Shown here piece after piece: positions 8,987 to 41,148 of a stretch of 52,808 nt of DNA. Position numbers and translations under genes: made by a program. Position 1 is the stretch's first letter, and every line of letters begins with the position of its first letter. Location: NCBI GenBank assembly GCA_020058285.1, contig JAGVEL010000039.1, positions 1 to 52,808 on the forward strand, in the 5' to 3' direction. Under the pieces are notes generated by a model. The model saw only the letters and a list, made by a program, of their open reading frames with translations. It made no database searches and had not been told where the DNA came from. This DNA is from Candidatus Omnitrophota bacterium (GTDB lineage Bacteria; Omnitrophota; Gorgyraeia; JAHJTE01).

Positions 8987-9988
8987 ATGGGACAATTGCG
9001 TAGAGATCCGATAGTTGGCCGCTGGGTAATTGTAAATGTTGAAAAACCAAAATTGCCAGAACAATTTGAGGTTACTAAGCATGAGTTTACTCAAAAGGCA
9101 AATTGCGCATTTTGCTATGGCCATGAAAACATGACTCCTCCGGAGATAGATGCGGTTAGGCCGCCAGATACCTTACCCAATACTCCGGGATGGGCTGTTC
9201 GCGTTGTTCCGAATAAATTTCCGGCATTGAGGATTGAAGGTGAGCTTAATCCCGAAGGGATTGGTATCTATGACATGCTAAACGGCATAGGTGCTCATGA
9301 GGTTCTCATTGAAAGCCCGGAGCATGAAAAAAACTTAGCTGATCTAGAGGTAGGCCAGATTAGGGATTTTATTGATATGGCTTGCCGCAGGGCGATTTCA
9401 TTAACCGGAGATAAACGTTTTAAATATATCTTGCTTTTTAAGAACTACGGAGTGGATGCAGGCGCATCCTTAGAGCACGGCCATGGACAGATGATTGCCT
9501 TGCCGATGATCCCTAAAAATGCCTACGAGGAATTAGAAGGAGCGTACCGTTATTTTGAATACCATGAGCGCTGCATTTTTTGTGATATCATTCGGCAAGA
9601 AAAACAAGAGAAACTGCGTATTGTTTGTGAAAATGAATTATTTGTGGCATTTTGCCCTTTTGCTTCGCGTTTTCCGTTTCAAGTTTGGCTTATCTCAAAG
9701 CAGCATTCTCCATATTTTTGCCATATGAGCGCTCAGGAGAAAAATAAGCTTTCTGAGATTTTAAAATGTTCTTTGCTAAAAATAAAAAAAGTTTTACGTG
9801 ATCCGAGTTATAATTTTATTCTTCATACTTCGCCTTTGGATATTAAACAGGCTGAAGGTTTTCATTGGTATGTAGAGATAATGCCCAAGCTTACGCGCGT
9901 AGCTGGTTTTGAATGGGGAAGTGGATTCTATATTGTCCCGACTCCACCAGAGGTGGCGGCTAAATTTTTAAGAGAAGCTGAAATTTAA
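8987..9988 (+). CDS. galT: Galactose-1-phosphate uridylyltransferase (GalT family) paralogue 2
   Basis: RVVPNKFPAL, GAHEVLIES, AGASLEHGHGQ (intact HxHxQ), AGFEWGSG. Confidence 0.88.
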   Translation: MGQLRRDPIVGRWVIVNVEKPKLPEQFEVTKHEFTQKANCAFCYGHENMTPPEIDAVRPPDTLPNTPGWAVRVVPNKFPALRIEGELNPEGIGIYDMLNGIGAHEVLIESPEHEKNLADLEVGQIRDFIDMACRRAISLTGDKRFKYILLFKNYGVDAGASLEHGHGQMIALPMIPKNAYEELEGAYRYFEYHERCIFCDIIRQEKQEKLRIVCENELFVAFCPFASRFPFQVWLISKQHSPYFCHMSAQEKNKLSEILKCSLLKIKKVLRDPSYNFILHTSPLDIKQAEGFHWYVEIMPKLTRVAGFEWGSGFYIVPTPPEVAAKFLREAEI

Positions 9989-10207
9989 ATGAGGGCACAA
10001 TTTACGGAAACGTAAGTTGAACGTAAATTGTTTCGCCCGAATTTATCCAGCACTAATTTTGTAATCAGTCTGGATTTATAGATTCAAATTTGATAAAAAA
10101 TTACTTTATTAATTAACCCAATACGCTATCAAAATTAGTGCTGGGTTCAATTCGCACAATCGACTTAGCTCGCTGTAAGGATTGGCTCGCTAAGTCGAGT
10201 GCTCATT
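9986..10207. repeat. Four-way-junction intergenic element, copy 1
   Basis: AATGA | GGGC-ACAATTTACG..CGTAAATTGT-ttc-GCCC | GAATTTA-TCCAGCACTAATTTTG..CAAAATTAGTGCTGGG-TTCAATTC | GCAC-aa-TCGACTTAGC..GCTAAGTCGA-GTGC | TCATT; homologous to the elements at 21312 and 40930. Confidence 0.88.
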
Positions 10208-10221
10208 GGAGGAGGAAGTTT

Positions 10222-11244
10222 ATGGCAGGTGCAAAGGTAAGAGTAGGAATCAATGGCTTTGGCCGCATTGGCCGGTTGGTGTATCGTGCTGGCCTTAAAA
10301 ATAAGGATATAGATTTTGTGGCAATTAATGATTTACCAGTCGGTTCAAAGGTTTTGGGGCATTTACTTAAGTATGATTCTACCTTCGGAGAGTTGTCGGC
10401 GGATGTTTTAGTAAAAGATGACGCCCTAATTGTTGACGGCAAAGAATTAAAGATTTTAACCGCCAAATCTCCAGCAGAAATTCCCTGGAAGGATTATTCG
10501 GTAGACATAGTCGTTGAATCTACAGGCGTTTTCACTGATAAGGAAAAAGCTATCGGCCATATAACAAATGGGGGAGCGAAAAAAGTAATTATCAGCGCCC
10601 CGGCAAAAAATGAAGATGTGACAATTGTCTTAGGCGTTAATGAAGAAGTTTACAATCCCAAAAGCCACCATATTATTTCAAATGCGTCTTGTACGACAAA
10701 TTGCCTTGCACCTATGGCTAAGGTATTGTTAGATAATTTTGGCATCAAATCCGGCTTAATGACTACAATTCATTCCTACACTAATGACCAGAAGATTCTG
10801 GATTTGCCGCATAAAGATTTAAGACGGGCGCGTGCTGCTGCCATTTCAATGATACCGACCTCAACTGGCGCAGCCAAGGCAATAGGCAGCGTAATCCCAG
10901 AGTTAAAAGGAAAAATGGATGGTTTGGCAATAAGAGTGCCTACGCCGGATGTTTCAATTACCGACCTTACCTGTATCGTAGAAAAAGATACAACCGTTGA
11001 AGAAGTAAATGCTGCTTTTAAAAAAGCTTCCCAGGGAAAATTAAAAGGCTTTTTGGCTTACCTAGAAATTCCTCTGGTATCAAAGGATTTTGTTGGCAGC
11101 AGTTATTCTTGTTTATTTGATGCAGAGCTCACCAAAGTAAGCAACAAAAACCTGGTTAAGATTCTGGGTTGGTATGATAATGAATGGGGTTATGCTAGCC
11201 GCGTCGTAGACCTGGTAAGCTTTATTGCCTCCAAGGGCCTTTAA
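10222..11244 (+). CDS. gap: Glyceraldehyde-3-phosphate dehydrogenase (type I)
   Basis: [30 protein letters not shown]. True start is probably ATG 10222 after GGAGGAGG; the ORF-track start at 10138 lies inside the repeat. Confidence 0.97.
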
Positions 11245-11250
11245 TATAAA

Positions 11251-39849: not shown

Positions 39850-39852
39850 CCT

Positions 39853-40608
39853 ATGCTTACAAAACGCATAATTCCGTGTCTGGACGTTTTAGATGGCCGG
39901 GTAGTTAAAGGTGTTAAATTCTTGAATCTTTTGGATGCCGGAGACCCGGTAGCAGTGGCTAAAATCTATGAAGCAGAGTGTGCTGATGAGCTTGTATTTT
40001 TGGATATTACAGCGAGTTTTCAAAAGAGAAAAATTCTACTTGAGGTAGTACGAAAAACTGCCCAGGCTATATTTATGCCGTTTACGGTTGGCGGCGGAAT
40101 AAGAAATATTGACGATATCCGCGATATCTTAAATGCCGGAGCAGATAAGGTGAGTATTAATACTGCAGCAATAGAAAATCCGCAGTTAATTCAATCTGCT
40201 TCAAAGCGGTTCGGCGCACAATGCATTGTTGTAGCTATTGATGCCAGGCGAGAAGGAAAGCTGTTTCGGGTTTTTAGCCATGGCGGCAGAAAGCGTTGCA
40301 AATTAGACGCAATTAGTTGGGCGAAAAAGGCTCAAAAATTAGGTGCGGGTGAAATCTTACTTACGAGTATGGATGCTGATGGTACACAAGAAGGTTTTGA
40401 TATCCAGTTAACCAAGGCAGTTAGTTCTAATGTAAATATTCCGGTTATTGCTTCAGGCGGAGCAGGAAAATTAAAGGATTTTGCCGAAGTTTTGACTAAG
40501 GGTGGGGCGGATGCTGCTTTAGCAGCATCGTTATTTCATTTTCGTACATTGTCCATAAGCCAGGTTAAAAAATATTTAAAATCAAAAAGAATTGCAGTGA
40601 GGGTTTAG
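39853..40608 (+). CDS. hisF: IGP synthase cyclase subunit
   Basis: [45 protein letters not shown]. Confidence 0.96.
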
Positions 40609-40611
40609 AAA

Positions 40612-40932
40612 ATGAACAAGAATGTTAAGATTTCCTATGACAAAAAAGGGCTTATTCCAGCGGTTATCCAGGATTATAAGACCAGCGAAGTGTTGATGGT
40701 GGCTTTCATGAATAAGGCGTCATTATCTAAAACTATTAAAGATGGTCTGACTTGTTTTTGGTCGCGTTCAAGGCAGAAGTTTTGGACCAAAGGAGAAACC
40801 TCAGGTCATTTTCAGAAGGTTAAAAATATTTTTTATGATTGTGATAAGGATTGCTTGTTAATAAAGGTAAAACAATTAGGACCAGCTTGTCATACGGGCA
40901 ATAGGAGTTGTTTTTATAGGAAGTTAAAATAA
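40612..40932 (+). CDS. hisI: Phosphoribosyl-AMP cyclohydrolase (monofunctional)
   Basis: [35 protein letters not shown]. Confidence 0.95.
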
Positions 40933-41148
40933 GCGAGACCACAACTTACGGAAACGCAAGTGACGTAAGTTGTATGGTCGAACTTACCCAGCACTAATTT
41001 TCGATAACGCATTGTGGTATAATTAGTAAGGTTAATTTTTTAGAAAAATTTAATCTATAAATCCAGACTAATTACAAAAATTAGTGCTGGGTTAAATTCG
41101 CGCAAATAATTTACGTCGTTAACACTCCGTAAATTATGCGCTCATTTA
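40930..41148. repeat. Four-way-junction intergenic element, copy 3 (cargo inverted relative to copy 1)
   Basis: TAAGCGA | GACC-ACAACTTACG..CGTAAGTTGT-at-GGTC | GAACTTA-CCCAGCACTAATTTT..AAAATTAGTGCTGGG-TTAAATTC | GCGC-aa-ATAATTTACG..CGTAAATTAT-GCGC | TCATTTA. Confidence 0.88.

Follow-up and report, generated by a model that had tools for sequence, protein, structure and literature searches.

What are the three short palindromic elements that occupy gene junctions on contig JAGVEL010000039.1 of a Candidatus Omnitrophota bacterium (GenBank assembly GCA_020058285.1), and to what kind of genetic object do they belong? The window analysed here is this entire contig, of 52,808 nucleotides; its source genome (G000) comprises 1.24 Mb in 70 contigs, is 92.8% complete, and comes from a phylum of uncultured, small-genome bacteria. 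A first-pass annotation had placed the elements, here called E1, E2 and E3, in an undescribed, non-autonomous family of mobile elements or recombination sites. As for the answer, E1 to E3 are rather likely to be copies, devoid of an open reading frame (ORF), of an intergenic cassette that is spread throughout Omnitrophota, acts at the DNA level, and is associated with a GIY-YIG nuclease; this cassette looks like an undescribed kind of mobile element, the mechanism of its mobility being one that we infer. The original classification held in that the family is dispersed and undescribed, and it failed in the two models offered with it, since the cassette is neither a repetitive extragenic palindromic (REP) element served by a REP-associated tyrosine transposase (RAYT) nor an attC array.

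Plan and folding of E1, E2 and E3

The three elements lie at the positions first assigned to them (Table 1), and each has the proposed order AATGA, arm, GAAYTTA, central hairpin, TTMAAYTC, inverted arm, TCATT. The arm consists of a 4-bp outer stem and a 10-bp inner stem, with a bulge of 2-3 nt on the inner side and a loop that starts with GA and ends with GA(A); the second arm mirrors the first on the opposite strand, and the conserved loop letters are the same in arm orientation, in agreement with the suggestion that the polar features of left and right arms belong to opposite strands. The arm next to the stop codon of the upstream gene is here called the stop-side arm, and the one next to the following gene the start-side arm. 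Some details of the plan had to be corrected: not all inner stems are perfect, the left arm of E2 (L2) having one wobble and one mismatch and its right arm (R2) one mismatch; the closing stem AATGA/TCATT is imperfect in E3 (AGCGA versus TCATT); and the dyad symmetry is approximate, with the two arms of an element being two different polar types.

Regarding the four-way-junction fold, RNAfold returned it for both strands of E1 and for the reverse strand of E2. Folded as DNA, E1 had an energy of -43.8 kcal/mol against -19.1 ± 2.9 kcal/mol in 200 shuffles (z = -8.66), and none of the shuffles equalled it. The zero unpaired bases at the junction are given automatically by two inverted arms around a palindromic centre. 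The loop of the central hairpin of E1, of ~70 nt, is the loop sequence of E3 in the opposite orientation.

Copies beyond the window

The initial count of three copies and six arms fell far short. Iterated nhmmer searches started from the six arms found 82 arms in G000, as 32 detected pairs and 18 singles, hence ~50 elements; for most of the single arms, the partner is diverged, truncated or interrupted. A covariance model built from 56 aligned arms gave 76 arm matches in the same genome, and the cassette family makes up about 1% of G000 and roughly a tenth of its intergenic DNA. The elements are modular, with a central hairpin that falls into at least five sequence classes, CCAGCACTWATT, CCACACCCAG, CCTCACCTTTT, CCGCCCTTTTG and CCTTGACATTTAC, whose half-sites in G000 stand at most 40 nt from an arm in 27/28, 11/11, 16/20, 7/7 and 1/2 cases, respectively; central classes other than class A have short loops or none. 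Stems differ between the left and right arm of one element, each arm pairing with itself, and some arms carry small extra hairpins at the bulge position.

As for the relatives, which the first-pass annotation had named as a place to look for further copies, 47 of the 61 same-class genomes (more than 40 families) have matches to the arm model, many of them at least 86 and with bit scores as high as in G000; in a sample drawn from the whole phylum, with classes beyond this one, the figure is 101 of 151 genomes. An exact-pattern scan of 185,579 species genomes, one per prokaryotic species, returned at least 117 stretches; among those listed, nearly all are titled Candidatus Omnitrophota or Omnitrophica, with a few titled Planctomycetales or "bacterium". 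Six of eight oddly titled stretches are true arms by the model, one titled "Clostridiales" and one titled "bacterium" not being confirmed; the two pattern matches in the IMG/VR viral contigs are not arms by the model either. The copy number varies among close relatives, with 6, 75 and 81 arm matches within one family, and 26 (genome G009) versus 65 (G179) within one genus.

Two other small sequences were met within or between cassettes. A palindrome of ~20 nt, CTGCCTGCCGGCAGGCAG, is nested in arms or junctions at three places in G000 (C60:11780-11864, C64:5592-5670, C51:7437-7509) and also in G179 (L255); at one orthologous element G179 has it and G009 lacks it, so that it looks like a separate, tiny insertion element. 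On contig C35 of G000 (25095-25823), a single ORF of 104 aa (25309-25623) stands between two cassettes with identical start-side arms.

A putative nuclease gene inside the cassette

No cognate enzyme is encoded in the window, as had been stated from the start. Elsewhere in G000, on contig C21 (548-944), one element has the loop of its class-A central hairpin filled by an ORF of 77 aa (627-857) with a GIY-YIG domain. A search of the 61 genomes with this protein found homologues in 24 of them. Among 30 loci that hold such homologues, 11 (in 9 genomes of different families, G000 included) have the ORF flanked by the two arms at a constant spacing, 4 are one-armed (2 of these are cut by contig ends), and 15 are armless, mostly weak matches. 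The layout of the armed loci is constant, with the ATG directly after the left repeat and the stop overlapping the right repeat; the ORF points toward the start of the next gene in the 10 loci with a readable 3' flank, and in 9 of 10 readable cases the 3' arm is of the start-side type. Among the 29 genomes with at least 10 arm matches, 19 have homologues with E ≤ 1e-5, versus 2 of the 14 arm-free genomes, counted by hand and with related genomes that are not independent of each other.

Regarding the protein, the ORF-bearing cassettes encode 77-85 aa, which amounts to the bare GIY-YIG core; the Pfam model GIY-YIG (PF01541) scored 39.2 and 56.4 bits (cut-off 22.6), and Y5, Y16, G18, R26 and E54 are invariant in 10 proteins. 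A profile search against PDB sequences ranked UPF0213 1zg2 first (E = 5.7e-9), then 1ywl (1.9e-5), SLX1 7cq2 (8.9e-5) and I-TevI (0.02); judged by these profile scores, the putative nuclease is a member of the SLX1/UPF0213 lineage. Passages of PMC1564403 assign stand-alone bacterial GIY-YIG proteins of such kind to the Slx1 lineage and derive the known selfish GIY-YIG enzymes from a UvrC-like lineage. SLX1 is described in PMC9071465 as cutting branched DNA, for example Holliday junctions, and DNA that can fold into hairpins and four-way junctions would suit such an activity. Proteins from cassettes of central-repeat class A share 65-75% identity, those of class B 67-70% and those of class D 56%, versus 34-63% between classes; this grouping by central-repeat class fits either a cognate pair of protein and site or mere common descent of the module.

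Small GIY-YIG ORFs were also seen in other settings. At C57:6372-6587 of G000 (L251), a second one starts directly after a partial copy of the 5' part of a tRNA and is followed on its 3' side by intact tRNA-Pro(tgg) and tRNA-Arg(tct) genes; in G036 (L249), such an ORF is flanked by a similar partial tRNA-like duplication, and at L235 one adjoins a tRNA-Pro gene. In G022 (L229) and G012 (L233), GIY-YIG ORFs are framed by the inverted repeat CCCCGCACCTT...AAGGTGCGGGG and have neither stop-side (S) nor start-side (I) arms, the repeat module being tandemly reiterated at L229. Another small hairpin repeat (CGGGGAAAACTTCTGCGAACTTTTCCCCG and a variant) occurs in G000 at C16:10455, C16:5506 and C15:178, by the GIY-YIG gene of C16.

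Occupied and empty junctions

Empty orthologous sites, sought as a sign of mobility, were found: the gene order around E1 to E3 is kept in relatives, and the junctions are mostly without an element. No arm is present at the trpE junction in any of 5 syntenic relatives (spacer 0 to ~70 nt), at the acyl-CoA dehydrogenase junction in any of 3 (15-26 nt), or at the gap junction in any of 4 (~0-110 nt). Because orthologous sites in relatives are mostly empty, the elements are gained and lost. The exception is G008, a genome of another family, which has a cassette without a start-side arm upstream of the acyl-CoA dehydrogenase gene, with a right junction that is, by eye, the same as in G000. At the gap locus of G008 (L182, ~300-350), TTAAATGAG and TCATTAA stand 15 nt apart before the ribosome-binding site of gap, at the junction used by E1; this pair may be the remnant of a lost cassette.

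A closer comparison was made between G009 and G179, which belong to one genus and have 79-92% DNA identity. At six arm sites of G009, the element is missing from G179 in three, shared in two, and ambiguous in one. One ORF-less element of G009 corresponds to a 52-nt spacer in G179 and has the 8-bp sequence AAGGAGGT on both sides; one ORF-bearing element is absent from the orthologous site in G179; and another element stands against 118 unrelated bases. In addition, G179 has a different hairpin in the place of one arm of G009.

As for sequencing data, contigs from three DNA runs (shares 0.25, 0.09 and 0.08) over 9700-21700 showed no clean empty-site or strand-switch joint; these contigs are fragmentary, break at repeats, have arms of other elements piling onto those of the window, and drop minor variants.

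Constraint on the arm hairpins

The compensatory change asserted for the stems was borne out by the 56 aligned arms, in which 97.9% of 774 cells are paired, compared to 73.3% after partner shuffling and 24-37% in controls with slid partners. Changes on both sides occur in 10 of the 14 base pairs of the arm, in 187 cells, and none of 500 shuffles matched the cell count or the covariation score; since pairing and both-side changes exceed those of the shuffles, the hairpin is under constraint. The accompanying statement that structure and not sequence is conserved is true only in its first half: the arms have a clear consensus, which begins with AATGA, ends with GAATT and can be detected by a plain sequence hidden Markov model, and 9 of the 74 alignment columns are invariant and 13 nearly so.

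Regarding the molecule on which this constraint acts, a functional RNA helix normally tolerates G-U far better than A-C. Among 259 arms from G000 and other genomes, Watson-Crick combinations make up ~96% of the pairs, while G-T, A-C and other mismatches each account for a similar 1.3-1.9% in both arm types; the lack of an excess of G-U over A-C fits a palindrome kept at the DNA level. Both this mismatch spectrum and the fact that the arms are arranged as mirror images weaken a new structured RNA, which had been offered as an alternative. The comparison with Rfam gave no match at gathering level across the window, and in E-value mode only sub-threshold matches to plant miRNA hairpin models; a metabolite riboswitch, disfavoured earlier on account of the unrelated flanking genes, is disfavoured here as well.

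Placement between genes

The genes flanking the elements are those named before, for glyceraldehyde-3-phosphate dehydrogenase (GAPDH), acyl-CoA dehydrogenase and anthranilate synthase I; the Pfam assignments make the pairs GalT-like/gap (E1), GNAT/acyl-CoA dehydrogenase (E2) and hisI/trpE (E3). In all three elements, the TAA stop of the upstream gene falls within the first letters, and the downstream ribosome-binding site (E1, E2) or ATG (E3) is within a few bases after TCATT. Among the 32 paired elements of G000, 28 lie between co-directional genes, filling the entire stop-to-start gap, 3 between divergent genes and 1 between convergent genes. The strand bias of this genome is extreme, 95.8% of coding bases being on one strand per contig, and the GC skew of the contigs (|0.06-0.17|) tracks gene direction with r = 0.96; a bias of ~96% by itself predicts a co-directional share such as 28 of 32.

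The two ends of the cassette differ with respect to the genes. At gene ends, the outer stem of the arm is, for example, GGCC or AGCC, and the junction is GAATTT; arms at gene starts have GCAC, GCGC or GCAG stems and the junction GAATT[AG], and abut CTCC, the Shine-Dalgarno (SD) sequence on the other strand. In G000, the outer stem GC[AG][CG] is present in 27 of 39 start-adjacent versus 4 of 43 end-adjacent arms (p = 1.5e-8), and junction type divides by arm position as 29/6 versus 8/36 (p = 7e-9); in other Omnitrophota loci, the junction rule gives 43/8 versus 21/26 (p = 5e-5, with crude ORF calls). An SD-like string occurs within 10 nt outside 13 of 110 stop-side arms. Only 8 arms stand beside genes that run against the skew, and they are split 5 to 3, which leaves transcription and replication confounded.

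Table 1. Positions of E1 to E3 and of their parts in the window.
Feature	Position	Strand	Description
E1, ORF-less, central repeat class A	9986..10207	+	fills the gap from the end of the GalT-like ORF (9988) to the SD/ATG of gap (ATG 10222)
E1 stop-side arm (S type)	9993..10038	+	4-bp + 10-bp hairpin, TTC bulge, loop GA...GAA; then junction GAATTTA
E1 central hairpin	10039..10153	.	junction halves GAATTTA / TTCAATTC; inverted repeat CCAGCACTAATTTT around a loop of ~70 nt
E1 start-side arm (I type)	10154..10202	-	outer stem GCAC/GTGC; TCATT (10203-10207) abuts GGAGGAGG
E2, ORF-less, central repeat class B CCCCACACCCAG	21312..21477	+	between the GNAT acetyltransferase gene (stop 21312-21314) and the acyl-CoA dehydrogenase gene
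E2 stop-side arm	21319..21362	+	found by nhmmer and covariance model
E2 central hairpin	21363..21429	.	13-bp stem, short loop
E2 start-side arm	21430..21472	-	TCATT (21473-21477), then GAAGGAGG
E3, ORF-less, class A	40930..41148	+	between hisI (PRA-CH, stop 40930-40932) and trpE (ATG 41149)
E3 stop-side arm	40937..40979	+	found by nhmmer and covariance model
E3 central hairpin	40980..41099	.	class A inverted repeat, loop of ~70 nt
E3 start-side arm	41100..41141	-	outer stem GCGC; TCATT (41142-41146)

Some junctions are tighter than others. Both trpE and the gene 3' of the C21 cassette begin 2-4 nt past TCATT, and no SD is visible ahead of trpE (41142-41151) or ahead of the gene after the C21 cassette (~925). 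In the relatives, trpE overlaps or abuts the upstream stop, so that the 219-nt cassette now splits a formerly coupled stop and start in G000.

Transposases considered as mobilisers

REP sequences are served by RAYT transposases of the Y1 (HUH) type, and the first-pass annotation had compared the elements to REPINs, which are RAYT substrates made of two inverted REP sequences. No match to PF01797 (Y1_Tnp) was found in G000, at its 92.8% completeness and with its 76-82 arms. Y1_Tnp genes of the IS200/RAYT-like kind are present in 50 of the 61 same-class genomes, with 1-13 per genome and many frames of 160-340 aa. Around 24 Y1 loci of relatives (95 kb), there are 6 arm matches in 3 loci, which is about background density. 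In G031 and G013, which have one Y1 gene each, that gene is framed by inverted repeats of its own that differ from those of the cassette, and in one of the two cases the repeat bears a GTAG tag. The arm consensus lacks both the GTAG and the CGTC tag; the definition of the REP tag is that given in PMC3733652. The REPIN-like reading was discarded on these grounds (no RAYT in G000, no tag, different repeats at the Y1 genes of relatives), and with it RAYT as the mobiliser. The likeness to integron attC sites did not stand either: the elements are single and lie between housekeeping genes of conserved synteny, a judgement on the elements themselves, the integrase not having been searched for.

Two further features were noted in genome G002. 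Its contig C35 (L192, L196) has an ordinary IS200 with typical end hairpins, inserted beside a start-side arm, and the same IS200 copy is at both contig ends; its contig C8 has a giant gene, with an open frame of 23,636 aa in which some stretches weakly resemble GAPDH and acyl-CoA dehydrogenase.

Interpretation

The explanation preferred here is that of an intergenic DNA cassette with which a GIY-YIG nuclease is associated. Read along the direction of its flanking genes, the full-length cassette starts with the stop codon of the upstream gene inside the terminus TTAAATGA, followed by the stop-side arm, GAATTT and the left half of the central inverted repeat; the GIY-YIG gene fills the loop, followed by the right repeat half and AATTC, and the mirrored start-side arm, TCATT and the SD or start of the next gene complete it. 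The nuclease, as a relative of enzymes that cut branched DNA, may recognise hairpins or cruciforms formed by the cassette, by ORF-less copies or by the target, and may help the cassette to be copied or moved, be it through homing-like break repair with the arms as homology or through excision and insertion. The break repair or excision would spread the cassette or its ORF. The short copies, E1 to E3 included, would be non-autonomous, and many are probably old and immobile; insertions would be tolerable because the cassette folds compactly, brings a stop at one end and leaves the ribosome-binding site intact at the other. A bolder version is possible but, in our view, doubtful: that this is a novel class of mobile element in prokaryotes, with a minimal GIY-YIG nuclease of the SLX1 lineage as its driver, one that recognises structure (hairpins or the four-way junction extruded by the cassette) rather than long sequence, and that the element has colonised operon stop-to-start junctions throughout the phylum and has left ~50 non-autonomous copies per genome of 1.2-2 Mb.

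It should be noted that several observations weigh against this explanation. No activity or movement has been observed, and the nearest full-length copies inside G000 are only 83-88% identical, which argues against a recent burst or movement there. A target-site duplication (AAGGAGGT) is present in 1 of 4 comparisons of filled and empty sites, the whole stop-to-SD spacer differing at the other 3, the acyl-CoA dehydrogenase junction among them. As for the nuclease, the ORF is present in only 1 of the ~50 elements of G000, no GIY-YIG homologue was obtained from 10 of the 29 arm-rich genomes, and related GIY-YIG ORFs are also found within arm-less inverted repeats and beside tRNA genes; the ORF could be a secondary invader of pre-existing hairpins. 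The short class-A loops (E1, E3, C10, C51) align to the ORF no better than shuffled loops do, and the idea that they are deletion remnants of the ORF was abandoned, the alignment scores being within the range of the shuffles. Finally, the conservation of the arm sequence across the phylum is unusual for a purely selfish repeat, and the polarity of the elements could equally reflect selection at the RNA level or the direction of replication.

Among the rival explanations, an unlikely one is a cis-acting structured RNA in operon transcripts, serving as intercistronic stabiliser, processing site or attenuator, with the GIY-YIG gene as an occasional invader of the loop, and with gain and loss seen as recruitment or decay. 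It would explain why the paired elements mostly fill the stop-to-start gap between co-directional genes, why they have so strong a polarity with respect to gene direction in G000 and elsewhere, and why the arm is conserved across the phylum; tandem G-A pairs are possible at the loop ends, and the small extra hairpins at the bulge of some arms suit it as well. However, the co-directional share of 28/32 is what the strand bias leads one to expect, G-U is not in excess of A-C in either arm type, and one transcript would present complementary loops and bulges in the two arms, yet both are conserved in the same arm orientation; moreover, the orthologous junctions of relatives work without the element, and Rfam has no match. 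Conservation across the phylum would also suit a DNA architecture site kept by the host and bound by a conserved host protein, in the way that gyrase or IHF bind bacterial interspersed mosaic elements (BIMEs), with a polarity tied to replication direction; this polarity does coincide with GC skew and strand bias, and the copies in G000 are old and divergent. Such a site is decidedly improbable considering that copy number varies so much within one family (6/75/81) and one genus (26 vs 65), that 14 of the 61 same-class genomes have no arm match, that occupancy is site-specific and patchy, and that no candidate protein was identified.

The two remaining rivals invoke known routes of DNA rearrangement. 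An element of the REP/REPIN or BIME type, set in motion by a RAYT (Y1 HUH) enzyme that acts on the arm hairpins as single-stranded DNA, would be in keeping with inverted hairpin units around a spacer, with the Y1_Tnp genes of 50 of the 61 same-class genomes (29 of the 29 with at least 10 arm matches among them), and with orientation, as a bias with replication is known for single-strand transposition; it appears quite improbable against the lack of any Y1_Tnp match in the arm-rich G000, the background density of arms near Y1 loci, the separate repeats of the Y1 genes in G031 and G013, the ordinary IS200 nature of another Y1, the missing tag, the left and right arms that are not complementary, and the Y1 genes present in 8 of the 14 arm-free genomes too. 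An invertible promoter switch, in which the central inverted repeats flank a flipping, promoter-bearing segment, was suggested by the inverted loops of E1 and E3 and by a TGnTATAAT-like string in E3 that faces trpE; it is hardly credible, as the promoter and terminator scans did not rise above shuffles, promoter-like sites being no more numerous than in these and the E3 string unsupported, the other central classes have short loops or none, no recombinase is linked to the elements, and the assembled contigs, from which minor variants are dropped, have no strand-switch joint at the loop.

Significance

Regarding novelty, a literature search covering main texts gave no description of the cassette repeats or of repeat-framed UPF0213 genes, and nothing that ties UPF0213 proteins to a role or to repeats. 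[quoted passage not shown] Bacterial UPF0213 proteins are not known to have a role or a link to repeats.

If the link to the nuclease is true, the cassette would be a type of mobile element outside the DDE, HUH, serine and tyrosine enzyme classes, and there would be a testable role for the UPF0213 proteins, which are widespread but uncharacterised and are related to SLX1, the junction nuclease of eukaryotes; if the reading as a novel class is true, this would be the first function, and a selfish one, for the bacterial UPF0213/SLX1-like proteins. On the practical side, the arm model marks Omnitrophota contigs sharply and accounts for breaks in assemblies, and the cassettes matter for gene calling and operon expression in this phylum because they supply stops and abut ribosome-binding sites.

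Relation to known repeats and nucleases

The cassette shares with REPINs and BIMEs, which are REP doublets of proteobacteria, the short inverted palindromic units around a spacer, the tens of intergenic copies per genome, often just past stops, the compensatory change that keeps the hairpins, the mosaic combination of units and spacers, and the long persistence. It differs from them in having an extra central hairpin of several classes and no GTAG/CGTC tag, and in a spread that is phylum-wide instead of limited to a species or genus; further, REPINs and BIMEs are served by RAYT, whereas full-length cassettes carry a GIY-YIG gene, and the two REPs of a REPIN are near-copies that can pair, whereas the cassette arms pair only with themselves.

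Bacterial MITEs, of which Correia, RUP and ERIC are examples, are likewise ~160-240 bp long, with terminal inverted sequences, are intergenic and co-transcribed, and have ORF-less copies that far outnumber the ORF-bearing ones. In contrast to them, the long form of the cassette encodes a GIY-YIG core of 77-85 aa and not a DDE transposase (DDE families were not searched systematically), duplication is seen at 1 of 4 sites, the ends are structured hairpins of ~65 nt and not simple inverted repeats, and the orientation is fixed relative to genes.

As for the enzyme, the cassette protein has the catalytic domain lineage of SLX1 and bacterial UPF0213 proteins (1zg2, 1ywl, 7cq2), as indicated by the profile search; eukaryotic SLX1 differs in having a RING domain and SLX4 as a partner, and nuclease function is putative for the cassette protein. 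The genes of GIY-YIG homing endonucleases (I-TevI, phage T4 Seg) resemble the cassette in their catalytic core, in being small insertions present or absent at one locus, and in their likely co-transcription with host genes. Unlike these endonucleases, the cassette protein has no DNA-binding extension of the NUMOD type and belongs to the SLX1/UPF0213 and not to the homing endonuclease/UvrC lineage, and its gene sits in a hairpin loop framed by repeats that are found ~50 times per genome.

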